Assembly (NCBI GenBank): GCA_913060465.1
Contig: CAJXTR010000001.1
Coordinates: 1 to 62,352 of the forward strand
Length of the DNA: 62,352 nucleotides
Direction of reading: 5' to 3'
Source of the DNA: an uncultured Cryomorphaceae bacterium
Lineage (GTDB): Bacteria > Bacteroidota > Bacteroidia > Flavobacteriales > Schleiferiaceae
Part shown: piece by piece, positions 10,754-48,879 of the stretch
How the letters are laid out: each line of letters opens with the position of its first letter
Position numbering within the stretch: position 1 is the first letter of the stretch
Translations under genes and position numbers: made by a program
The notes under the pieces: generated by a model
Databases searched by the model: none
Told to the model about the DNA's origin: nothing
Seen by the model: only the letters and a program-made list of their open reading frames with translations

Positions 10754-11638
10754 GTGGAAAGTAGGTATTCAATAAAAGATTTAGAACAACTGAGTGGCAT
10801 CAAGGCGCATACTTTGCGGGCTTGGGAGCAACGTCACAAGTTGATCATACCTAAGCGTACTAGTACTAATATTCGTTTTTACGGCGATGATGATCTACGT
10901 ACGGTGTTGAATACGTCCGTTTTGTTAGATGCCGGATACAAGATTGGACAGATTGCCAAATTCACTTCATCTGAGCTCAGTGCAAAGGCCTTAGAGGAAA
11001 GTCCTTACACTGGAGCCTATACTTATGAGTTGAATGAACTTAAAATGGCTACGTTGAACTTTGATTTGCCGAGGTTTGAATCCGTAATGAGCCATTGTAT
11101 ATCTGAGTTCGGTGTTCACAAGACTTTCCAAGAGATAATAGGTGATTACATTCAAGAGCTAGGCAAGCTTTGGTTAGCGGGCAATGTAAGCATATCACAA
11201 GAGCACTTTATGTCATCGCTCATCCGTCAGAAACTGTTTTCTGCCATCGACTCACTTCCTAGCGTCGCTGTGCCGAAGAGCGGCTCTTATGCATTGTTTC
11301 TTCCTGCAAACGAACTACATGAGTTAGGACTTCTATACCTCACGTATGTATTAAAGGAGCGGGGAGAGCACGTATATTATCTAGGACAAAGTCTTCCTAA
11401 GGAATATCTTGAGGACCTTCTTAATCATAAACGAATTACCCATCTCATTTCTGCGTTTACTACCAATCCAGATGTAGAACAATTGGACGATTACCTCGTG
11501 GAATTAGATGATATGGTGGAAGGAAATGGTGTTAAAGTATTGCTTACTGGGTATCAATTTTCACAATTTGAACCCAAATCTGCTTATCGCAATATTGAGA
11601 TTCATGAGTCTTTAAAGGACTTGAGCGCCGCTATTTAA
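10754..11638 (+). CDS. MerR-family, B12-binding light-responsive repressor (CarH/LitR type)
   Basis: GTG start. N-terminal MerR HTH (YSIKDLEQLSGIKAHTLRAWEQRHKLIIPKRT). W-x9-E-H motif (W140 LAGNVSISQ E150 H151). Cobalamin lower-ligand motif E-x-H-x-x-G (NELHELG, H189). Rossmann-like C-terminal half. Confidence 0.8.
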   Translation: MESRYSIKDLEQLSGIKAHTLRAWEQRHKLIIPKRTSTNIRFYGDDDLRTVLNTSVLLDAGYKIGQIAKFTSSELSAKALEESPYTGAYTYELNELKMATLNFDLPRFESVMSHCISEFGVHKTFQEIIGDYIQELGKLWLAGNVSISQEHFMSSLIRQKLFSAIDSLPSVAVPKSGSYALFLPANELHELGLLYLTYVLKERGEHVYYLGQSLPKEYLEDLLNHKRITHLISAFTTNPDVEQLDDYLVELDDMVEGNGVKVLLTGYQFSQFEPKSAYRNIEIHESLKDLSAAI

Positions 11639-11645
11639 TTTTTTT

Positions 11646-11734
11646 ACTGTTTGTTTAATAATTTTTCTAAAATGTTTGACAAAATGTTCAAACACTTTGT
11701 TTAACTTTATACTCGGAATCGTTAAACAAACAGA
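11646..11734 (+). promoter_or_regulatory. reiterated TGTTTG/CAAACA operator-like array upstream of the ECF sigma-crt operon
   Basis: 12-bp perfect inverted repeat CTGTTTGTTTAA (11647..11658) / TTAAACAAACAG (11722..11733). 10-bp perfect inverted repeat TTTGTTTAAC (11696..11705) / GTTAAACAAA (11721..11730). Central imperfect palindrome TGTTTGA-n8-TCAAACA (11673..11694). Confidence 0.6.
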
Positions 11735-11736
11735 TT

Positions 11737-12243
11737 ATGTCTACTGCAGAATTCGGTCAACTGATTGATAGAGAATATGAATTTCTAAATCAGCTTGCTA
11801 TGAAATTGACCAAGCAACGCGATGATGCTGAGGATCTAATTCAAGATACCTATTACAAAGCCTTGAAAAACAAGGATAAATTTGCGACAGGTACAAACTT
11901 GAAAGGGTGGCTGTACACAATCATGAAAAATACGTTCATCAACAACTACAGAAGAAAGCGTAACCAAAACACTTTCGTTGATGAAACAGATTCCCAGTTC
12001 TTTTTGAATTCGAAAGAGTCTAGCAAGAGCACGCACACTGAAGCCAACGTTGATAATGAGTACATCATGAATCAGATTGATTCCATTGAGAAGCATTACA
12101 CTGAGGCATTTTTTATGCATTACGAAGGCTATAAGTATGAAGAAATCGCTGAGCATTTCAACATTCCTCTAGGTACGGTTAAATCAAGAATATTCTTGGC
12201 CAGACAGAAGATGATGGAAAAATTAGGCGACCTTCGTTACTAG
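11737..12243 (+). CDS. ECF-subfamily RNA polymerase sigma-70 factor
   Basis: 168 aa. Region 2 (DAEDLIQDTYYKALKN...GWLYTIMKNTFINNYRR) and region 4 (YEEIAEHFNIPLGTVKSRIFLARQKM). No anti-sigma ORF follows. Confidence 0.88.
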   Translation: MSTAEFGQLIDREYEFLNQLAMKLTKQRDDAEDLIQDTYYKALKNKDKFATGTNLKGWLYTIMKNTFINNYRRKRNQNTFVDETDSQFFLNSKESSKSTHTEANVDNEYIMNQIDSIEKHYTEAFFMHYEGYKYEEIAEHFNIPLGTVKSRIFLARQKMMEKLGDLRY

Positions 12244-12266
12244 TCCTCACACCTAAACGCCCCAAC

Positions 12267-13742
12267 ATGAAATCAGTAATAGTAATCGGCTCTGGATTCG
12301 CCGGTTTGAGTTCAGCTTCCTTTCTAGCGAAGGCTGGATATGACGTAACATTATTAGAGAAAAACGATCAATTAGGAGGCCGTGCCCGAGTTTGGGAAAC
12401 GGAAGGCTATAAATTTGATATGGGCCCTAGTTGGTACTGGATGCCCGATGTATTTGAACGTTACTTCAAATGTTTTGGATACAATGTTGAGGATTTGTAC
12501 CATTTAGTTCGATTGAATCCATCTTACAGAGTGGTCTTCGGCCCTAACGACCACGAGGACCAAAGCGCAAACATGGAAGAACTTGAAGCCATGTTTGATC
12601 GTCTTGATCCAGGCTCTAGTGTACGTTTGCGTAAGTTTCTTAAAGAGGCTGCGTATAAATATGAGGTTGGTATTAAAGACCTCGTACACAAGCCGTCGAG
12701 ATCAATTTTAGAATTTGCAGATATTAGAATTCTGAAAGGATTGTTCCAATTGGACCTTCTCAAAGACATGCGAAAGCATGTGGCAGAGGTAAGTACTCAT
12801 CCGAAGCTCAAAGCAATCATGGAGTTTCCAGTACTTTTCCTTGGTGCACTTCCACAGAATACACCAGCTCTGTACAGCTTGATGAATTACGCCGACATGT
12901 CTCTCGGTACCTGGTACCCTCAAGGGGGCATGAATAAAATCATCGAGGCTATGGTAAAGGTTGCCAAAGAGCAGGGGGTTAAGTTTCGTACGAATGCAGA
13001 AGTAACCGGGTTTAAGTATGCGGGCAACAAAATTGTCGGTGTCACTACAAAAAAAGGTGCCTTTAGTGCCGACATAGTAGTCGCAGGAGCTGATTACCAC
13101 CATATTGACCAAAATGTCAGCGGGGCAGACAAGCGAGAGTATACAGAGCAATATTGGGAGAAAAGAAAAATGGCACCCTCATCATTGCTCTTTTATTTAG
13201 GTATTAAAGGAGAGGTACCCAACGTGTTACACCACAACCTTTTCTTTGATCACGAACTCGATCAGCATGCTGGTGAACTCTATACCACTCCCCAATGGCC
13301 TACGAAACCATTGTTTTATGCAAGTGCGCCTTCGAAAACAGATAAATCGATTGCACCTGAAGGTTGTGAAAACATGTTCCTACTCATGCCTACAGCCCCT
13401 GGTTTAGGTGGTGATACCGAAGAAGTTCGAGAGAAATACTACAACATTATGATGGACCGACTTGAACAATTTACGGGTTCAAGCATTAGAGATAGAGTAG
13501 AGGTTAAGCGCAGTTTTGCATTTTCAGAATTTAAATCTGAATACAACAGCTTTAAAGGAAACGCCTACGGCCTAGCCAATACACTTGATCAGACGGCAAT
13601 ACTAAAGCCAAGATTGAAAAGTAAGAAAGTAAGTAACCTTTATTTCGCAGGTCAACTTACCACACCAGGGCCGGGAGTCCCCCCAACCTTGATAAGTGGA
13701 GAAGTGGTCAGCAAAGAAATAGCTAAAGACTTCAAACTGTAA
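12267..13742 (+). CDS. crtI: phytoene desaturase
   Basis: FAD dinucleotide fold VIVIGSGFAGLSSA...LEKNDQLGGRA; C-terminal GQLTTPGPGVP; 491 aa. Confidence 0.92.
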   Translation: MKSVIVIGSGFAGLSSASFLAKAGYDVTLLEKNDQLGGRARVWETEGYKFDMGPSWYWMPDVFERYFKCFGYNVEDLYHLVRLNPSYRVVFGPNDHEDQSANMEELEAMFDRLDPGSSVRLRKFLKEAAYKYEVGIKDLVHKPSRSILEFADIRILKGLFQLDLLKDMRKHVAEVSTHPKLKAIMEFPVLFLGALPQNTPALYSLMNYADMSLGTWYPQGGMNKIIEAMVKVAKEQGVKFRTNAEVTGFKYAGNKIVGVTTKKGAFSADIVVAGADYHHIDQNVSGADKREYTEQYWEKRKMAPSSLLFYLGIKGEVPNVLHHNLFFDHELDQHAGELYTTPQWPTKPLFYASAPSKTDKSIAPEGCENMFLLMPTAPGLGGDTEEVREKYYNIMMDRLEQFTGSSIRDRVEVKRSFAFSEFKSEYNSFKGNAYGLANTLDQTAILKPRLKSKKVSNLYFAGQLTTPGPGVPPTLISGEVVSKEIAKDFKL

Positions 13743-14578
13743 TGAAAGCCCTATTCGACAGCATTAGCATACGATCGAGCCGAATGGTTACGAAGGCTTA
13801 TAGTACTTCGTTCTCACTAGGTATTCTTGGTTTAGACAGGAAATACCACGATCCAATCTATGCGATTTACGGTTTTGTCCGATTCGCAGATGAAATCGTC
13901 GACTCTTTTGAGGGATATGCTCAAAAAGAACTCCTAGAAGACTTTTGGAAGGACACCCACAAAGCACTTGAACACAAGATCAGTTTGAATCCTATACTCA
14001 ATAGTTTTCAGCAAGTTGTTCATGCATACAACATTGACCTCGACCTTATTGAAACCTTCCTCAAGTCCATGGAAATGGATTTGTATAAAAACGAATACGA
14101 CGAGGCAGGCTACAAAGCCTATATCCTTGGCAGTGCCGAAGTAGTAGGCCTTATGTGTTTGAAGGTATTTGTTGATGGTAATGAGGAAAAATACCAGCAG
14201 CTCAAGAAGCCTGCGATGCAGTTAGGATCAGCCTTCCAGAAGATCAACTTCCTCCGCGACCTAAATGCAGACTACCATAGTCTAGGCAGAACCTACTTCC
14301 CAGGCGTGGACTTAAATAACTTCAACGAAACGGTTAAGGCTGAGATAGAAGCGGATATCGACATCGACTTCAAGGCGGGCTATGAAGGCATTAAACAGTT
14401 GCCGAAGGGTGCCCGATTCGGGGTGTACATTGCCTATGTTTATTACTACAGTCTCTTCAAAAAGATTGAGAAGACACATTGTGATTTGATTTTAAATGAA
14501 CGTGTTAGAATTAGCAATAAAAGAAAGTATGGCTTATTCTTGAGTTCATATTTACGACATACCATTAACTGGATTTAA
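13742..14578 (+). CDS. crtB: phytoene synthase
   Basis: Squalene/phytoene synthase fold (YGFVRFADEIVD, MEMDL, GSAEVVGLM, QKINFLRDL). Start overlaps the crtI stop (TAATG). Confidence 0.9.
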   Translation: MKALFDSISIRSSRMVTKAYSTSFSLGILGLDRKYHDPIYAIYGFVRFADEIVDSFEGYAQKELLEDFWKDTHKALEHKISLNPILNSFQQVVHAYNIDLDLIETFLKSMEMDLYKNEYDEAGYKAYILGSAEVVGLMCLKVFVDGNEEKYQQLKKPAMQLGSAFQKINFLRDLNADYHSLGRTYFPGVDLNNFNETVKAEIEADIDIDFKAGYEGIKQLPKGARFGVYIAYVYYYSLFKKIEKTHCDLILNERVRISNKRKYGLFLSSYLRHTINWI

Positions 14579-14580
14579 TA

Positions 14581-15111
14581 ATGCTTGAACAAGTTATCCT
14601 GGTCGATGAGCAAGACAATGCTCTGGGACTGATGGAGAAAATGGAAGCGCATCGCCTGGCGAAACTGCACCGTGCATTCTCTGTTTTCGCCATGAACGAC
14701 AAAAATGAAATTCTATTACAACGCCGTGCACTGCACAAGTACCATAGCGGTGGGCTGTGGACAAACACGTGTTGTTCTCATCCAAGAGATGGAGAGACCG
14801 TGGAGGCAGCTGCGAAACGACGTTTGATGGAGGAGATGGGCTTTACCTGTGATGTGAAACGCATCTTTTCATTCATCTACAAAGCGGAACTAGACAACGA
14901 TCTTACCGAGCATGAATTAGACCATGTACTCATCGCCCGTTACAACGATGATCCACAAGTCAATCCTGAAGAGGTTGACAGTTTCGATTGGAAATCAGTG
15001 GAATGGGTAGCCCAAGACATGAAAGACCATCCCGAAAAGTATACTGAATGGTTTAAAATCATTTATGACAGATTCTTAACCTATTGGATGAATGAAGATC
15101 ACGGTCTCTAG
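14581..15111 (+). CDS. idi: isopentenyl-diphosphate delta-isomerase, type 1 (Nudix)
   Basis: HRAFSVF...LLQRRA..K....GLWTNTCCSHP...E..AAKRRL.EE.G motif series typical of IDI-1. Confidence 0.9.
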   Translation: MLEQVILVDEQDNALGLMEKMEAHRLAKLHRAFSVFAMNDKNEILLQRRALHKYHSGGLWTNTCCSHPRDGETVEAAAKRRLMEEMGFTCDVKRIFSFIYKAELDNDLTEHELDHVLIARYNDDPQVNPEEVDSFDWKSVEWVAQDMKDHPEKYTEWFKIIYDRFLTYWMNEDHGL

Positions 15112-15502
15112 AAAAGCACATTTTAATGCAGCACACCGGTTGCATAATCCCGCGTTAAGTGCTGCGGAGAATCAATCGGTATTCGGCAAGTGCAACAACG
15201 AATACTTTCATGGACACAACTACGAATTGATTGTTAGTGTGACGGGTGAGGTGGATCCTAAAACAGGCTATCTCATTGACATGAAGGTATTGCGAGACCA
15301 TATAAAGACAGAGGTAGAGGATTACCTGGATCATAAGAATTTGAATATTCAGGTCGAAGAATTCAAAACCCTTAACCCAACCGCCGAACACATTGCCTAT
15401 GTGATTTGGAACCGACTTAAAGCTGTGCTCAACCCGGATCTTGAACTTTCAGTAAGACTTTATGAAACGCCAAGAAACTTCGTGGATTACAGCGGGTTAT
15501 AA
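15092..15502 (+). CDS. 6-pyruvoyl-tetrahydropterin synthase family protein (PTPS/QueD fold, eukaryote-like C-x5-HGH type)
   Basis: AHFNAAHRLHNPALS...VFGKCNNEYFHGHNYEL...LDHKNLN. Closely resembles animal PTPS (FGKCNN..GHGHNY). Overlaps the idi 3' end by 20 nt. Confidence 0.85.
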   Translation: MKITVSRKAHFNAAHRLHNPALSAAENQSVFGKCNNEYFHGHNYELIVSVTGEVDPKTGYLIDMKVLRDHIKTEVEDYLDHKNLNIQVEEFKTLNPTAEHIAYVIWNRLKAVLNPDLELSVRLYETPRNFVDYSGL

Positions 15503-15514
15503 AAAATTTTTCTG

Positions 15515-16186
15515 ATGACGACACACGACAATAAGTACACACCGGAAGAACTCGAGCATTTGGTCGAGGCACATCTAGGAACCTCCATTGATACTCCATT
15601 GAGAAAGGATGCTTTTGATAAAACCGATGAGGAGAAAATTGAAATCATTGCTGAGAAATTCCACGAGATCATGGAAGTACTTGGTTTGGATTTAACGGAT
15701 GATAGCCTTCAAGGCACTCCGCTTCGCGTCGCAAAAATGTATGTTAAAGAGGCTTTTGCTGGTTTAAACCCTGATAACAAGCCAGAGATGAAGCTCTTCG
15801 AGAATAAGTTTCGATACAACGAGATGCTCATCGAGAAAGACATAAAGGTACACTCACACTGTGAGCACCATTTTGTTCCCATTTTAGGCAAGTGCCATGT
15901 AGCTTATATCCCTAATGGAAAAGTAGTGGGTTTGAGTAAGTTGAACAGGATTGTGCGTCATTACGCGAAGCGCCCACAGGTTCAAGAGCGTCTTACCCGT
16001 CAAATCGCAGAAGCATTGATGGAAGGCCTTCATACACAGCATGTAGCGGTTTATTTAGAGGCCGATCACATGTGTGTAAAAACTAGAGGTATAGAAGACG
16101 ACCACAGTTCAACCATTACCATGGCATTCCACGGTGATTTTGAGAACGAGGCAAACAAACGTGCGTTTTTAGAGTCTTTTAAGTAA
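15515..16186 (+). CDS. folE: GTP cyclohydrolase I (type 1)
   Basis: [39 protein letters not shown] signature blocks. Confidence 0.93.
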
Positions 16187-17490
16187 TGCAAGAAGTTTCG
16201 GTCTTTTGGTTTCGAAGAGACTTGCGTCTTGAGGATAATGCGGGTCTTTGGAAAGCCCTCAAATCTGGCAATCCAGTTTTACCCATTTTCATCTTTGATA
16301 AGACCATCCTTGAGAAGCTCGAGGATAAAAGCGATGCTAGAGTGTCCTTTCTTCATCAAACCTTAACCGCGCTAAATGCTCAGTTGCAAGGTTTGGGCAG
16401 CGGGCTTCATGTATTTCATAGTACGCCATTGGAAGTCATGGAGGAATTGGCCGCCACTTATCGTGTTAAAAATATCTTCTTCAATAGAGATTATGAACCC
16501 TATGCTAAACTCCGGGATAAAGAGGTTTACGATTTCTGGACGGAAAAAGGAGTAGGGGTCGTCGGTGCCAAAGACCATGTGATTTTTGAGAAGGATGAAG
16601 TCGTAAAAGCAGATGGGACCCCGTATTTAGTTTTTAGCCCGTATGGACGCGCTTGGCGAAAGTTACTTACACCTTACCAATACAAAGCGTACCCGAACGC
16701 CACGTATTTCGGTAATTTCTTCCCATGTGAAGGAACACGTGTACCTGAGCTTGAGGCTATGGGCTTTGAGAAGACGGCAATTCCTATACCTTCGAGTGAA
16801 ATCGATACGTCGATTATTAAAACGTACGATGAGACTAGAAACTTTCCAGCACAAAAGAGGGGGACTACTCGACTAGGCATTCACTTGCGCTTTGGCACAC
16901 TATCAGTTCGCAGGTTGCTCGAATATGGATTGAAGTACAATGACACTTTTGTCAATGAACTCATATGGCGGGACTTCTATCAAATGGCTTTATATAATTT
17001 TTCTGAGAGTCGTGAGAAAGCAATCAAGCCTAAGTACGACTTGATTCGTTGGGAAAACAACGAAGCGCATTTCGAGGCTTGGTGCAAGGGAAAGACTGGC
17101 TACCCCATAGTTGATGCGGGAATGCGAGAATTGAATGCGACAGGTTACATGCACAATAGAGTACGAATGATTGTAGCGAGTTTCTTGACGAAACACCTTT
17201 TGATAGATTGGAGGTGGGGAGAGGCCTACTTTGCAGAAAAGTTGTTAGACTTTGATTTGGCTTCGAATGTAGGTGGTTGGCAATGGGCGAGTGGCAGTGG
17301 CTTAGATGCTGCACCGTACTTCCGTGTTTTCAACCCAACTGCCCAGATGGAAAAGTTCGACAAAGACTTGAAGTACATCAATAAATGGGTCCCAGAGTTA
17401 AAGACACACTTGTATCCTCAGCCTATTGTGGAACACAAATGGGCGCGAGAACGCTGTTTGGAGCGGTTTAAAGAGGCGTTGAACGCGTAA
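16186..17490 (+). CDS. cryptochrome/photolyase family protein (deoxyribodipyrimidine photolyase)
   Basis: N-terminal FWFRRDLRLEDNAGL. FAD-binding C-terminal TGYPIVDAGMRELNATGYMHNRVRMIVASFL...WQWASGSGLDAAPYFRVFNP. Start overlaps the folE stop. Confidence 0.9.
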   Translation: MQEVSVFWFRRDLRLEDNAGLWKALKSGNPVLPIFIFDKTILEKLEDKSDARVSFLHQTLTALNAQLQGLGSGLHVFHSTPLEVMEELAATYRVKNIFFNRDYEPYAKLRDKEVYDFWTEKGVGVVGAKDHVIFEKDEVVKADGTPYLVFSPYGRAWRKLLTPYQYKAYPNATYFGNFFPCEGTRVPELEAMGFEKTAIPIPSSEIDTSIIKTYDETRNFPAQKRGTTRLGIHLRFGTLSVRRLLEYGLKYNDTFVNELIWRDFYQMALYNFSESREKAIKPKYDLIRWENNEAHFEAWCKGKTGYPIVDAGMRELNATGYMHNRVRMIVASFLTKHLLIDWRWGEAYFAEKLLDFDLASNVGGWQWASGSGLDAAPYFRVFNPTAQMEKFDKDLKYINKWVPELKTHLYPQPIVEHKWARERCLERFKEALNA

Positions 17491-17498
17491 CCGAACCC

Positions 17499-18920
17499 TT
17501 ATTCCGTCTCAGCGGCAGTATATCCAAAAAGTTGCTTTTCCTTAATTACGTTGTCGACGTATTTGGGTAGACATTCTTGCCATCCATCTTCACCACAGCG
17601 TATTTTACGAAGCACCTCGCGTGAGAATATATTGGTAATGCTCTCGTCGTATTCTTCGATGTCCAAGATTCTGTTGTGGAAAATGAGGTAATCAATAATT
17701 GGACGGAAGCGCGGATGCACTTCAGCATCCTCTTTTCGAGTAACCTTAGATGTGGCATTTTCTTGGAAGGGGTATACAAGGATTTTAAGATCCTTAGAAA
17801 AGATTCGACCGAAGGCTTCGAGAATACCCCCTTGGAGACCACGGTAGTATTTTTCGTTGAACAATTCAGAAAGGTTGTTTACCCCCATGACGAGTCCTTG
17901 ACGCTTTTTAGAGAATCGACCGAAATAATCTACAAGCTTGTAGTATTCCTGGTAGTTAGAGATCAGTACAGTTTGGCCGAGGCTACATAATATCTCAGCT
18001 CGATCTAAGAAATCTTGCTCATCTAACTCACCGTCTGCAAGGAGGTTGTTCAAGGTAATCTCCCAAAGAACCACGGTTTTATCCGGGTTTACCTTCTTGT
18101 CATTAGCAAAAACCTCGTAACCTCGCTTAATCATGTCCATGTTCACGCGTGTCACCGGTCTGAATGAACCGCGCATGGCCAGAATGTGTTTTTTGTAAAG
18201 TAATTCAGCTGGCAAAAGGTTATTTCCTTCAGGGCCAAAAATCACTGCATCGGTATAGCCATTTTTGATCAATTGCAATGACATCAATCTGTTGTCGACC
18301 GTCTCAAAATCAGGGCCTGAGAAATTGATCAAATCAATCTCAATAGCAGCATGGTCGATATTGTCGTAGAGGCTTTTTAGAAGTTCTTTACAGTCCGTAT
18401 AGAGGTTATAGGCTCCATGAATCAAGTTCGTACCCAATCTACCCACCGTTTCTTGCTGGTGTTTTGCCTCATTCTCATGAAGTCTGAAATGCAAGAAAAT
18501 ATCATTGGTCGCTTTATCAGGAGCCGTTTGAAAACGAATACCCATCCAACCGTGACCTTTGAAAGTCTTCGCGAAGTTGATAGTCGCCACAGTGTTGGCG
18601 TAAGCAAAGTATTTTTTCTCAGGGTGGAGGGCGCGATCTAGTCGCTTTTCTATCAAACTGTATTCATGCTTGAGCATCTTTCGAACACGACTCTCAGTAA
18701 CATAACGTCGATCTTCCTCGATTCCGTAGATATCATCTGAAAACGCTTTATCGTAGGCACTCATTGCCTTTGCGATGGTTCCAGAGGCTGCACCTGCTCT
18801 AAAAAATTCACGAACAGTTTCCTGCCCAGCACCAATTTCCGCAAACGTACCGTAGATATCGGGGTTTAGGTTAATTTTAAGTGCCTTTTGAGCGGTAGTA
18901 AGAATGACGCGGTCCTTCAT
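17499..18920 (-). CDS. conserved hypothetical cytoplasmic protein (family not recognised)
   Basis: Long uninterrupted 473-aa ORF with no signal peptide or TM segment. It has its own -7 box and appears monocistronic. N-terminal FAEIGAGQE motif. Confidence 0.6.
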   Translation of the reverse strand: MKDRVILTTAQKALKINLNPDIYGTFAEIGAGQETVREFFRAGAASGTIAKAMSAYDKAFSDDIYGIEEDRRYVTESRVRKMLKHEYSLIEKRLDRALHPEKKYFAYANTVATINFAKTFKGHGWMGIRFQTAPDKATNDIFLHFRLHENEAKHQQETVGRLGTNLIHGAYNLYTDCKELLKSLYDNIDHAAIEIDLINFSGPDFETVDNRLMSLQLIKNGYTDAVIFGPEGNNLLPAELLYKKHILAMRGSFRPVTRVNMDMIKRGYEVFANDKKVNPDKTVVLWEITLNNLLADGELDEQDFLDRAEILCSLGQTVLISNYQEYYKLVDYFGRFSKKRQGLVMGVNNLSELFNEKYYRGLQGGILEAFGRIFSKDLKILVYPFQENATSKVTRKEDAEVHPRFRPIIDYLIFHNRILDIEEYDESITNIFSREVLRKIRCGEDGWQECLPKYVDNVIKEKQLFGYTAAETE

Positions 18921-45372: not shown

Positions 45373-45894
45373 ATGATTACAAAGAACAAAGTATTACTCG
45401 GCTTAATCGTTTTAGCGTTCGTATCACGTATCGCTCCACATTACCCTAACTTTACAGCTATGGGTGCCTTAGCTTTCTTTGGCGCTACCCGTACCAAAAA
45501 CCTTTGGACAACTCTTGCAATGGTTTTCGGAGTAATGATGCTTAGCGATTTGATCATCAATAACATCGTATATCCGACAGGATCGTTCGTTTTGATGTAC
45601 TCTGGGTCTTTGTTTACTTATGCTGGATTCGCAGCATATGCCCTACTAGGTCGTTATGCTTCAAATGCGAAAAACAGCGCAGCTTTTCTCTTAATAGGCT
45701 CTTTGGCATTTTTCATGTTGAGCAACCTGGGTGTATACTTCAGCGCTTTCAACATGTTCCCACAGACCGTGGGTGGTTTGATTGCCACATATACAGCGGC
45801 TATCCCATTCTACGCACCGGAATTGATCTCAACAGCATTATTTAGCGTTTTAGCTTATGCTGCAGAGACCAAATTCAGTGCTGTAAAGGCTTAA
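45373..45894 (+). CDS. small polytopic membrane protein (DUF6580-like putative transporter)
   Basis: ORF 45352..45894; the ATG at 45373 gives MITKNKVLLGLIVLAF. Five to six hydrophobic spans; N-terminal RIAPHYPNFTAMGA motif. Confidence 0.5.
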   Translation: MITKNKVLLGLIVLAFVSRIAPHYPNFTAMGALAFFGATRTKNLWTTLAMVFGVMMLSDLIINNIVYPTGSFVLMYSGSLFTYAGFAAYALLGRYASNAKNSAAFLLIGSLAFFMLSNLGVYFSAFNMFPQTVGGLIATYTAAIPFYAPELISTALFSVLAYAAETKFSAVKA

Positions 45895-46898
45895 TAGATT
45901 ACTTGGCGAGGAATAACGCCAGCTGGAACAGTTTCCAACAAATCACCAGTAGTAGAATAAACGCGTAACTCACCGTTACTCGCGTAATCTTTGGCATCGA
46001 GGAAGTATAAATTACCCTCGTGGAAATTTAGTTTGTACCCTCCAGGTAAAGTCATCGTTGAGGTTTGCCATCCTTGGCCTGGTGTCCACTTCACAATCGC
46101 ACCGTCATAAGATGCATTCAGAAAGTATCCGTTTGTACCATCGCTTACCAGAGATATGGCGTGCTTATTTGCATTTGGAGCAACCACCTCTTCACTGAAA
46201 CCTGATCCCGTGTATTTCCAGATGCTCGATTTTGTATCCGGTGAAATCCCGAAATTTTGCTCTCCTGCATTTAAAACATATAGTTCATTGCCAATCACCG
46301 CAAAAGAATTAGGTACATCGCCCGTGTTGTAAAGCGTAGTTTCGAAAGTGTTCAAGTTCACTTCAGCTACTTTATATGGTGCTGAGTAGGTACCAACAGC
46401 AACAAACAACTTGTTTTCAAAGATGGTCATCTGTTCGGTGAAATTACCCATGTACAAGCTATCCACTTGAGCACCCGTTTCTTTCGAAAGTACATATACT
46501 GCACTATCCTTCCAGTTAGAGACAAAAATATTGCTGCCGTGAGCCGCCAAATAACGGGGTTGTTCAAGATCTACCGTCCATTTATGCTGGAGGGTATTTC
46601 TATTAAAAGCACGCACTTTATTGCCATTATTGATGGTTACGAAAAGCAATGAATCACTCTCAAGCATATGTTGAGCAACATTTCCTAATGGAAAACCATT
46701 TTCTGTGGCAATTGCTGATTCAATAAGTGTATCCGCATCATATGCAGTAATAGTACCCGTCCCTACACCAAAAGGCCCTTCATTAAGGATTAGGTGTAAA
46801 TCCGTGTAAAGGCCGCTAGGACCAGTTGCCGGTGGTGTTTTACCACAAGATGCCAAGCTGATTGCAGCAATAATGGCTAGGGATGATGTAATTCTCAT
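45891..46898 (-). CDS. beta-propeller surface lipoprotein (YncE/YVTN-repeat-like), B12-locus associated
   Basis: Lipobox LASCGK. Repeated blades of about 40 aa (LLFVTINNGNKV, NIFVSNWKDSAVYVL, NKLFVAV, NELYVLNAG, NGYFLNA, GNLYFLDA). Starts 3 nt downstream of the TonB receptor stop. Confidence 0.55.
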   Translation of the reverse strand: MRITSSLAIIAAISLASCGKTPPATGPSGLYTDLHLILNEGPFGVGTGTITAYDADTLIESAIATENGFPLGNVAQHMLESDSLLFVTINNGNKVRAFNRNTLQHKWTVDLEQPRYLAAHGSNIFVSNWKDSAVYVLSKETGAQVDSLYMGNFTEQMTIFENKLFVAVGTYSAPYKVAEVNLNTFETTLYNTGDVPNSFAVIGNELYVLNAGEQNFGISPDTKSSIWKYTGSGFSEEVVAPNANKHAISLVSDGTNGYFLNASYDGAIVKWTPGQGWQTSTMTLPGGYKLNFHEGNLYFLDAKDYASNGELRVYSTTGDLLETVPAGVIPRQVIY

Positions 46899-46901
46899 GT
46901 G

Positions 46902-48671
46902 TTATGAATGAAGTTTAAAGTTGAATAAATAGGTTCTGCCAGGCATAGGATAGTATTGGTAGTATTGTCGTTGTGCGCCTGTGAGGTTTTCGATTTTCAA
47001 TACACATTGCCAACGCTTATCCTTTCCGCTCAAAGAATATGCCAAATCGCACCACCCTTGAGCTGGCAATTCACCAGTTGATGCATTATCTCGGAGGGTA
47101 TGACGCAAACCCGTGTAATAGGCCCGCAACATGATCGAACCTATTGGCAACGGCTGTTCAATAGTGTAAACAGCTTGCAGCGCGGGTCTATAAATGAGTT
47201 GCTTGCCTATTAGGTTAGGATTATTCGAGGCCACATCTAGGATACGGCTGTATTGGTGAGTTATGTTGGCATCGTGATGCTGGCCAAAAAAGTCCTTATT
47301 AAGGCTGATGTTAGTTGTTCCAGTATATACCGAGTAATAGTTCTGGGGAGACCAAAGACCATTATTGCCCGGTGCCCATTGAATCATTTGGTCATAATAC
47401 AATTGATCCGTAGTAAATCGCAACCGGGTTTGCCCCCCGAGCTCGAATGAATACTTGGCGCCATAGGATCTTTCCGCAGCGATATTCAGGTTTCCACCAG
47501 GATTCCAAAACAGCTCATTCAAGGTGGGCAATCGGTAATAGGTGCCTGCGGAAAATTGGTGTAACCATCCCTGCTTAGTTTTGGTATAAAGTGCATAACT
47601 GCTGAGGTACAATTTATTCTGATACAAAGCCGCCCGAGAAACAACATGAATCTGCTTCTTTACTTTGAAAATCACTTGCCCTTGTGGCATGGAGGTCTTA
47701 GCGGTTCTATTCGTACCTGCGGCACTGTAACGATTAAATGTTAGTTGAGCATCGAAGCGCTTACCTGTATACACGTATTGCCCTGTGAATTGACCAAAAG
47801 TATTGGTATCTCGAATAGACAACACCGACATGGTATCTGTGTAGGCCTGCCATTCTTGAGAAGCAAAAAGTTTTAGTTGATGATTATCGCGTTTGACCTT
47901 GTACTTGAATCGAACCGTTTCATCTTCAAGATGATTCACGTAACCAGGCCCAATGACCGAGCCACTATTGTTTTTTTCGCTCTGGGTATACCATAAATCG
48001 GATACCCAAAACGATTTGCCTACACGACCACTGAACCGCTGCAAATAGCTCAGATCACCAAAATCATTTCCTTCCATCCTGCCCGATAAAGAACCTAGGG
48101 TGTACGGATAGGTATTTGCGCTAGTATTATAGCGCAGAATGCTTTGGTATCGAACTTTAGAAAAACTTCCCCAAGAATGGGCATTGAACGAACGCCCACC
48201 AATACTAGAGGCACCGACAGTTGTGGTTGTGCCTCGGCCGCTTTTTTGTCCAAGATTTATGTTTAACGCTCCCATTGAGCCCATGGCTGCCGTCGCGCCA
48301 CCGTTCATTCCATCAACAATAGCATCTGTACTAAGCATAAGAGCAGGAACAAGGCTGAGATCCAGAACACCGGTGGCCATACTACTAATGTCGATTCCAT
48401 CCCAAAGCACCCTACTCTGTTCACTTGTTGCACCTCCAAATGAGGACGTGACAACACTACCCGGGGTGTATTGCTTTAAAATGAATCGAGAATCTTTCTG
48501 AAGGTAATCAGATGCACTTTCTACATCCAGGGCCATCGAATCTGCCTTAGTTCTAAATTCTTCCGCCTTTGAGAAAATGCTGATGATTTCAGCAGTCCAT
48601 AAGGTGTCCGATTGTGCCAATGCCAAAGATGGGACCGCAAAGGCTATAAAAAGCAGCGAAATGTTCTTCAT
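46902..48671 (-). CDS. TonB-dependent receptor, BtuB-sized, under cobalamin riboswitch control
   Basis: Signal peptide, plug domain (GGATSEQSRVLWDGIDI) and a beta-barrel; 589 aa. Immediately downstream of the riboswitch. Confidence 0.85.
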   Translation of the reverse strand: MKNISLLFIAFAVPSLALAQSDTLWTAEIISIFSKAEEFRTKADSMALDVESASDYLQKDSRFILKQYTPGSVVTSSFGGATSEQSRVLWDGIDISSMATGVLDLSLVPALMLSTDAIVDGMNGGATAAMGSMGALNINLGQKSGRGTTTTVGASSIGGRSFNAHSWGSFSKVRYQSILRYNTSANTYPYTLGSLSGRMEGNDFGDLSYLQRFSGRVGKSFWVSDLWYTQSEKNNSGSVIGPGYVNHLEDETVRFKYKVKRDNHQLKLFASQEWQAYTDTMSVLSIRDTNTFGQFTGQYVYTGKRFDAQLTFNRYSAAGTNRTAKTSMPQGQVIFKVKKQIHVVSRAALYQNKLYLSSYALYTKTKQGWLHQFSAGTYYRLPTLNELFWNPGGNLNIAAERSYGAKYSFELGGQTRLRFTTDQLYYDQMIQWAPGNNGLWSPQNYYSVYTGTTNISLNKDFFGQHHDANITHQYSRILDVASNNPNLIGKQLIYRPALQAVYTIEQPLPIGSIMLRAYYTGLRHTLRDNASTGELPAQGWCDLAYSLSGKDKRWQCVLKIENLTGAQRQYYQYYPMPGRTYLFNFKLHS

Positions 48672-48713
48672 CCTATTCTAGCACTTGACCCAGAGCACCG
48701 TTAAATATTAATT

Positions 48714-48866
48714 GCAGGCCAAGTCTTCTGGCTCTTCGCTCCCATATCAACCTTCCCGCTTCCGCAGTGGATCTAGATACTTTCAACACGAATTACAGCT
48801 TCTGGCAAAGCCCCGGACTCCAACCGGGTTCCTTCTTCGGGCCAACCTCCGTTGACCAACCTGCCC
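48714..48866 (-). promoter_or_regulatory. cobalamin (B12) riboswitch aptamer
   Basis: The minus-strand RNA reads GGCAGGUUGG...GAAGGAACCCGGUUGGAGUCCGGGGCUUUGCCAGAAGCUGUAA...CCACUGCGGAAGCGGGAAGG...AGCCAGAAGACUUGGCCUGC. This matches the conserved cobalamin core blocks (GGAA-CCGGUG-A-UCCGG...CUGUAA; CCACUG...GGGAAGG; B12 box AGYCMGRAGACYUGSC) and P1 pairing GCAGG/CCUGC. Confidence 0.85.
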
Positions 48867-48868
48867 TT

Positions 48869-48876
48869 CAAAGATA
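48869..48876 (-). promoter_or_regulatory. -7 box (TATCTTTG on the minus strand) driving the riboswitch-TBDR transcript
   Basis: Plus strand caaagata, directly upstream of the aptamer 5' end. Confidence 0.45.
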
Positions 48877-48879
48877 CAG

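Follow-up and report, generated by a model that had tools for sequence, protein, structure and literature searches.

The stretch analysed here, referred to as the window, comprises 62,352 nucleotides (nt) from an uncultured Cryomorphaceae bacterium (Flavobacteriales; Schleiferiaceae in the GTDB lineage), namely contig CAJXTR010000001.1 of GCA_913060465.1, a 1.75-Mb assembly in 160 contigs that is 84% complete. The subject of this work is a locus between positions 10,754 and 17,490, in which a gene for a CarH/LitR-like regulator is followed by seven genes headed by that of an extracytoplasmic function (ECF) sigma factor. All eight open reading frames (ORFs) lie on the forward strand, and the successive junctions, from the regulator through to the photolyase, measure +98, +23, −1, +2, −20, +12 and −1 nt; the ORFs and the junction lengths that an earlier note on this DNA had listed were all found again as placed there. 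The features are collected in Table 1. The relatives retrieved by a related-loci search were all from uncultured marine Flavobacteriales metagenome-assembled genomes labelled Schleiferiaceae or Cryomorphaceae.

Table 1. Genes and predicted control elements of the locus, in window coordinates.
Feature	Position	Strand	Basis and remarks
carH/litR-like gene	10754..11638	+	MerR helix-turn-helix (HTH), four-helix bundle (Wx9EH) and Rossmann-like B12 domain (ExHxxG, His189); Pfam, NCBIfam
Predicted distal operator O1	11652..11681	.	left arm TGTTTAA 11652-11658, 16-nt spacer, degenerate right arm TTTGACA 11675-11681
Predicted proximal operator O2	11698..11728	.	perfect palindrome TGTTTAA-N17-TTAAACA, within which lie the −7 box and the probable start of transcription
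Predicted −7 promoter box TAACTTTA (TAACTTTG in many relatives)	11702..11709	+	fits the Bacteroidetes primary-sigma consensus TAnnTTTG
ECF-type sigma factor, 168 aa, first cistron	11737..12243	+	Sigma70_r2 and r4_2; no extension, no adjoining anti-sigma
crtI, CrtID-type bifunctional phytoene desaturase/3,4-desaturase	12267..13742	+	NF058655, 724 bits vs cut-off 640
crtB, phytoene synthase	13742..14578	+	SQS_PSY, E 3.5e-42
idi, type-1 isopentenyl-diphosphate (IPP) isomerase	14581..15111	+	NF002995, 164 bits vs cut-off 127
6-pyruvoyl-tetrahydropterin synthase (PTPS) family protein	15092..15502	+	PF01242; C-x5-HGH type, extra paralog
GTP cyclohydrolase I FolE	15515..16186	+	NF006824, 266 bits vs cut-off 202; extra paralog
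phr, class I cyclobutane pyrimidine dimer (CPD) photolyase, last cistron	16186..17490	+	PF00875 and PF03441

The N-terminus of the regulator (residues 5-72) matched the MerR winged-helix domain (PF13411, E 5e-15; PF00376, E 1e-8), and Pfam called a MerR HTH and a B12-binding_2 domain. In phmmer searches the best solved relative was CarH of Thermus (5c8d, E 1e-15), at only about 20-24% identity; in this alignment W140, E150 and H151 of the regulator correspond to W131, E141 and H142 of Thermus CarH, and H189 to the axial His177. The two B12-related motifs pointed out in the earlier note, W140-x9-E150-H151 and E187-L-H189-E-L-G192, were found as it described them, and among 57 distinct orthologs (33-100% identity) W140, E150, H151 and E187 were invariant, with H189 kept in 56. 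An AlphaFold2 model built from a 16-sequence alignment (mean pLDDT 83) comprised an HTH, a bundle of helices and, at residues 178-293, a five-strand beta-alpha domain. When this model was compared with the PDB by Foldseek, the top 12 matches were all full-length Thermus CarH (5c8e/5c8d, E about 1e-13), and the cobalamin-binding domain alone reached a target-normalised TM score of 0.70-0.75. LitR proteins of class I, in Takano's classes, are those with both B12 subdomains (PMC9758184). Because both defining motifs (Wx9EH and ExHxxG) are present and both B12 subdomains appear in the predicted fold, the regulator is best described, from sequence and model, as a class I CarH/LitR protein with the predicted full architecture of MerR HTH, four-helix bundle and Rossmann B12 domain. 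The earlier attribution of the gene to the CarH/LitR type is thus upheld by the conserved motifs and the predicted full fold.

As regards the cofactor, the genome encodes a PduO-type adenosyltransferase, and the window that holds the regulator also contains a cobalamin riboswitch (RF00174, 85.8 bits), at 48701-48878 on the minus strand. Because of these two elements a supply of adenosylcobalamin (AdoCbl) is plausible, and the genome can plausibly make it from imported cobalamin. Downstream of the riboswitch, 46902-48671 encodes a 589-aa signal-peptide protein without Pfam match and 45891-46898 a 335-aa lipoprotein; the two genes are probably a B12 uptake pair.

The co-transcription of the seven genes from sigma through phr was assessed with RNA contigs from six public metatranscriptomes of salt marsh and seawater. 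These derive from relatives 90-97% identical and, being contigs only, without strand or sampling time, show presence and not 5' ends. Contigs crossed each of the junctions sigma-crtI, crtI-crtB, crtB-idi, idi-PTPS, PTPS-folE and folE-phr, and in the two best runs the depth was about 0-5 over carH versus about 5-35 over most of the operon. A simple scan for terminators gave hits at chance rate only, and the intergenic gaps leave no room for internal promoters. Between sigma and crtI an internal promoter was ruled out, the gap there being −1 to +26 nt everywhere, and because this gap is conserved in about 50 distinct loci of three families the tight packing is not a matter of chance. The seven genes therefore act as one transcription unit, as the earlier note had proposed. 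The same note had placed the regulator apart from this unit; the 98-nt gap is indeed there, but the separation is not a clean one, since contigs also bridge the 3' end of carH and sigma and no terminator was predicted between them. This bridging suggests read-through from carH into the operon, which probably maintains a basal level of the operon in the dark.

The arrangement also recurs well beyond the family. Within its family, 40 of 42 genomes have an ortholog of the sigma (at least 53% identity), as do eight genomes from two further Flavobacteriales families; some 250 other genomes of this order gave no match better than 1e-30. The cultured relative Phaeocystidibacter luteus (L033, GCA_008933115.1) also has this locus. 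At the class level, orthologs with 42-53% identity were present in 248 of 401 sampled Bacteroidia genomes (about 60%). The carH-sigma-crtI triad was unbroken in 29 of 30 loci. Among 40 loci taken from some 35 other families, about 30 have the sigma directly before varying subsets of crtI, crtB, crtYcd, idi, PTPS, folE, a short-chain dehydrogenase/reductase (SDR) and photolyase, and in 13 of these 40 it is itself preceded by carH. That the genes are mere neighbours by vertical inheritance, each with its own promoter and with no common control by light, could be argued from the flanking housekeeping genes (prfC and an MBL hydrolase), which are syntenic within the family as well and make synteny alone weak evidence there. 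However, gaps of −20 to +23 nt with no space for promoters, the lack of terminators above chance, RNA contigs across every junction and the recurrence of sigma before crt, phr and pterin genes in so many other families render this explanation highly improbable.

The spacer between carH and sigma was aligned from 56 distinct loci at the family level, and a larger set of 96 distinct sigma upstream regions from the family and the class Bacteroidia was also compiled. A palindrome, TGTTTAA-N16/17-TTAAACA (O2), was found in all 56 family-level regions and in 88 of the 96 of the larger set. A second element upstream of it (O1), with the same spacing of 16-17 nt, was found in 42 of the 56; its right arm, TTTGACA in this genome, reads TTAGACA or TTAAACA in relatives. 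O1 lies 46 bp upstream of O2 in the sublineage to which this genome belongs and 53-56 bp in others. For this sublineage the half-sites, four in all, have starts at 11652, 11675, 11698 and 11722, 23-24 bp apart and in alternating orientation.

As background, the −7 consensus of the Bacteroidetes primary sigma is TAnnTTTG. O2 encloses a TAACTTTA/G box that fits this consensus, and a TAnnTTT[GA] box was present within the O2 palindrome in 68 of 88 loci (77%), compared to 7.8% of shuffled windows. The perfect palindrome occurs only once in the 1.75-Mb genome. A search for further operator copies yielded eight sites with two mismatches, which is the chance level (7-11 expected); these were discarded, including an initially promising one upstream of crtD. 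CarH tetramers occupy three to four tandem 11-bp repeats (nAnnTnnACAn) over sigma-A promoters (PMC8156234), and the half-site TAAACA agrees with the core TnnACA of those repeats. As in CarH systems, in which the operator overlaps the sigma-A promoter of carotenoid genes, the predicted operators lie around the −7 box. The promoter of the operon is most likely, as judged from these sequences, of the housekeeping sigma-A type and surrounded by CarH-type operators.

Taken together, these data make it probable that the locus works as a light switch that depends on B12, belongs to the CarH/class I LitR type and controls a single sigma-led operon. In the dark, by homology, the regulator would bind AdoCbl and oligomerise, and would then occupy the four TGTTTAA-type half-sites, arranged as two inverted pairs, O1 and O2. 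As O2 surrounds the −7 box of a housekeeping-type promoter, binding of the regulator would block RNA polymerase. Light would photolyse the cofactor, the repressor would leave the DNA, and a single transcript encoding the ECF sigma, CrtI, CrtB, IPP isomerase, the extra PTPS, the extra FolE and the CPD photolyase would be produced.

Several observations weigh against this switch and are considered in this and the following paragraphs, beginning with the regulator. Its cobalamin binding, response to light and repression are attributed to it by homology. Against the NCBIfam CarH equivalog NF052513 it scored 85.8 bits, far under the cut-off of 400, so that by this model it is a distant CarH member and not an equivalog, and the Rossmann B12-binding domain PF02310 was not called by Pfam. 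A light-response signature of four elements, GxxW, EH, GxxH and GxxxP, has been described (PMC11796333); in SignatureFinder terms the regulator has GKLW, EH and GQSLP, while the third element is NELH, in which Asn replaces the Gly of GxxH. These deviations would favour a CarH-like regulator that does not sense light through AdoCbl, in the way of CarA or the LitR proteins of classes II-V, and that responds to B12 supply, to redox or to a partner photoreceptor; B12-independent relatives of CarH and LitR do exist (PMC8156234, PMC9758184). Nevertheless, Wx9EH is absent from CarA and the Rossmann domain from class II LitR (PMC8156234, PMC9758184), whereas in the regulator the full two-subdomain fold is predicted and Wx9EH and ExHxxG are conserved throughout its orthologs, in a genome that can plausibly supply AdoCbl. 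Such an alternative sensor is accordingly regarded as quite improbable.

With respect to the DNA, the predicted geometry of inverted pairs about 23 bp apart is unlike every characterised CarH operator, all of which are tandem 11-bp direct repeats, and the RNA contigs begin upstream of the predicted transcription start and extend into carH, so that the promoter is not confirmed by 5' ends. In addition, the 99%-complete genome G030 (L122, C2:520500-534500; gene order sigma-crtI-crtB-phr) retains a near-intact O2, though no CarH was detected anywhere in it; it may be a natural carH-loss variant, for which constitutive expression would be predicted. An element kept where CarH is missing could instead belong to the sigma: TGTTTAA and TTAAACA would then serve as the −35 and −10 elements of a promoter recognised by the ECF sigma that the operon encodes, with CarH only modulating expression or acting elsewhere. 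The 16-17 nt between the arms correspond to a typical −35/−10 spacer, the left arm often ends in AAC, like many ECF −35 boxes, and it is common for ECF sigmas to regulate their own expression and to be encoded by the first gene of an operon that they control. The arms, however, are exact reverse complements over 7-9 nt, which suits a dimeric DNA-binding protein and not a promoter, and in most loci the palindrome contains the canonical primary-sigma −7 box described above.

The distribution of the palindrome bears on the same question. Two genomes of the same family, G034 (C10, L120) and G174 (C1, L121), carry a classical carH-crtI-crtB-crtZ-crtY cluster with no sigma between carH and crtI, and there the same half-sites flank the −7 box between these two genes, with a divergent CarH (33% identity). 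The genome of G174 lacks a sigma ortholog altogether; G034 has a reduced sigma-idi-PTPS operon elsewhere, also with palindromes. In four other genomes, in which crtIB is unlinked from sigma and has no adjoining carH, crtIB bears the palindrome in all four cases, and the sigma operon does so in three (only crtIB in G596); each of these genomes encodes one CarH. Among the sigma-bearing genomes of other families CarH was found in 38 of 40, and both CarH-less genomes were also devoid of the palindrome. Because sigma-less clusters and unlinked crtIB genes carry the palindrome and these two CarH-less genomes with sigma do not, the element appears from these comparisons to go with CarH rather than with the sigma, and a promoter served by the operon's own sigma looks rather unlikely.

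Two further points also count against the CarH-type switch. The metadata of the metatranscriptome samples carry no light or dark information, and a search of the literature turned up no experimental work in Bacteroidota on either CarH/LitR or this sigma. Light-induced carotenogenesis in Chryseobacterium lacus was considered as a possible instance of the same system and set aside, as its authors report no car or lit genes.

The sigma itself, with PF04542 and PF08281, consists of regions 2 and 4 only, its 168 aa being near the roughly 170-200 aa of ECF (group IV) sigma factors, and its TIGR02937 score of 89.5 bits, versus a cut-off of 42.9, identifies it as an ECF sigma, while it remained below the cut-off of every NCBIfam equivalog. 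The main text of Casas-Pastor et al. (2021) describes no ECF group with a carotenoid or photolyase context. The earlier note saw the sigma as the first cistron of the same transcript as its presumed targets. That it is the first cistron holds, but the view of the following genes as its targets finds no support, given the predicted sigma-A-type promoter and CarH-type operators. Because that promoter is wrapped by these operators, light most likely acts directly to lift the repression of crtI, crtB, idi, PTPS, folE and phr, and because crtI always lies within 26 nt of the sigma these structural genes would not need it. The sigma thus always heads an operon that seems not to need it.

Since the operator is unique in the genome, any other light-responsive genes would need a relay, and most likely it is the sigma that passes the light signal on to unlinked promoters. 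Against this, and against the switch as a whole, stands the fact that no sigma-dependent promoter was identified in four approaches. Enumeration of dyads in 18 cry-DASH/DPRP upstream regions gave a best dyad in 7 sequences versus a maximum of 6 in shuffles, which is not clearly above the control. The contexts of crtZ in 30 genomes were too heterogeneous for a shared sigma motif, and a few carried CarH-like half-sites instead. The upstream regions of crtI genes not located behind sigma had either the CarH palindrome or no common motif.

A wider scheme can be put forward tentatively, although it is on balance doubtful: the ECF sigma would act as the output of a B12 light regulon with two tiers that spans the class, in which one CarH opens the operon and the sigma, as its first product, activates unlinked light-response genes. 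The pigment, retinal, pterin and photorepair capacity of this rhodopsin-bearing marine lineage would then depend on B12 supply and light together, and the operator would represent a new mode of DNA binding by CarH, with four alternating half-sites about 23 bp apart.

As for what the operon would control, crtB, crtI and idi were detected solely in it when the genome was searched, and no second phytoene desaturase was detected, the sole other match being a crtD-like gene with 24% identity. Tailoring carotenoid genes are found on another contig (crtD-like, cruF-like, a fused CrtYcd and a CrtZ-like gene, the latter named from sequence and without Pfam match). At C4:15642-18566 a rhodopsin gene is divergent from a gene for a 660-aa CrtY-Blh fusion of lycopene cyclase and beta-carotene dioxygenase. 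Because the operon holds the only detected crtB and crtI, and retinal synthesis depends on the lycopene that they provide, the switch should gate the supply of retinal as well as that of protective pigments. The term photoprotection used in the earlier note is therefore too narrow for the operon of a rhodopsin-bearing genome.

In the case of idi, no type-2 isopentenyl-diphosphate isomerase was found in the genome, in which a mevalonate-pathway decarboxylase is present. Within this 84% complete assembly the operon idi may be the only IPP isomerase, and it would then need basal expression in the dark: if the methylerythritol phosphate pathway is absent, idi would be essential and the operon not fully silent in darkness. 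The read-through from carH could supply such basal expression.

A second folE (62% identical) lies at C45:5263-5946 and a second PTPS (44% identical) at C16:14832-15245, adjoining the gene for the mevalonate-pathway decarboxylase; because these copies sit on other contigs, the operon folE and PTPS are dedicated extra paralogs. The C-x5-HGH motif is found in both PTPS copies and fits no single choice between a tetrahydrobiopterin-type and a folate-type enzyme. However, the operons of relatives have an added SDR and flavin reductase, or an SDR in place of folE, from which we infer that the pterin branch of the operon is of the tetrahydrobiopterin type rather than part of housekeeping folate synthesis.

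Two more photolyase/cryptochrome loci are present in the genome. In front of a DPRP-cryDASH cluster, only about 20 nt from the start codon, two sequences (C10:1-66 and L096:1040-1095) share a conserved hairpin, rich in GC, with a T-run, and in the congener L096 a GGGAAAC...GGGTAC stretch lies upstream of this hairpin. At the end of the operon, the photolyase gene converges on an unrelated gene (17499-18920, minus strand) for a conserved 473-aa protein without Pfam or NCBIfam match, with 8 nt between the two stops. The 5' part of this gene is well covered by RNA contigs; it was considered as a target of the sigma and dismissed, as it has a sigma-A-type −7 box. In a close relative (L002:8709-9890) no photolyase match was found between folE and the convergent 473-aa gene, despite about 1.2 kb of sequence, and the last cistron may there have been degraded or replaced.

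If the CarH-type switch operates as proposed, much of the light response of Bacteroidia, including the abundant marine rhodopsin-bearing flavobacteria, would hinge on an exogenous vitamin. The fixed palindromic operator would be a ready-made cis-element open to testing, and Bacteroidota genetics may gain a compact switch operated by green light.

Previous studies of CarH/LitR switches concern Thermus, Bacillus, Myxococcus and Streptomyces. With the CarH systems of Thermus thermophilus, Bacillus megaterium and Myxococcus xanthus the present locus shares the domain order of the regulator (MerR HTH, four-helix bundle, Rossmann domain), a regulator gene that adjoins carotenoid genes, a predicted operator that overlaps a housekeeping-sigma promoter, and the TnnACA core. 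Four half-sites would also suit a tetramer, but here they are predicted as inverted pairs about 23 bp apart, in contrast to the three to four direct repeats of CarH. A further difference is that the operon begins with a sigma gene and also holds pterin and photolyase genes.

The resemblance to LitR-LitS of Streptomyces lies in the pairing of a CarH/LitR gene with an ECF sigma lacking an anti-sigma, in predicted operators upstream of the sigma and in the link to carotenogenesis. Streptomyces LitS operates with litR, litS and the target promoter alone, and the Streptomyces crt operons have their own LitS-dependent promoters, GCATCCR-N15-CVGAAD (PMC11519972). In Streptomyces litR and litS are divergent, whereas here crtI and crtB follow the sigma in one transcript and share its predicted sigma-A-type promoter, and no sigma-dependent promoter was found. 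In Myxococcus CarQ-CarR there is likewise a light-responsive ECF sigma in a carotenoid circuit, encoded by the first gene of its operon. CarQ, however, is autoregulated and is kept in check by CarR, an anti-sigma in the membrane, and its signal is singlet oxygen with plasmalogen and not B12. No anti-sigma gene was found at the present locus, neither as an ORF in the 23-nt gap between sigma and crtI nor elsewhere in the operon or its relatives. The missing anti-sigma, presented earlier as a distinction of this locus, does separate it from CarQ-CarR, but not from LitS (PMC11519972).

LitR-LdrP of Thermus also joins photolyase and carotenoid genes in a two-tier light regulon, although its second tier is a CRP/FNR activator and not a sigma. 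In Pseudomonas, the class II LitR proteins PplR and PmlR have a light regulon in which photolyase goes together with folE and pterin genes plus cryB (PMC9758184); unlike the regulator described here, they depend on LOV proteins and have no Rossmann domain for B12. In both Thermus and Pseudomonas the genes concerned are spread over several operons. The earlier note had taken the bundling of pigment synthesis, pterin synthesis and photorepair as a further peculiarity; control of photolyase and pterin genes by light was already known from Pseudomonas (PMC9758184), and what is new is that a single transcript combines these genes with crt genes and a sigma gene.

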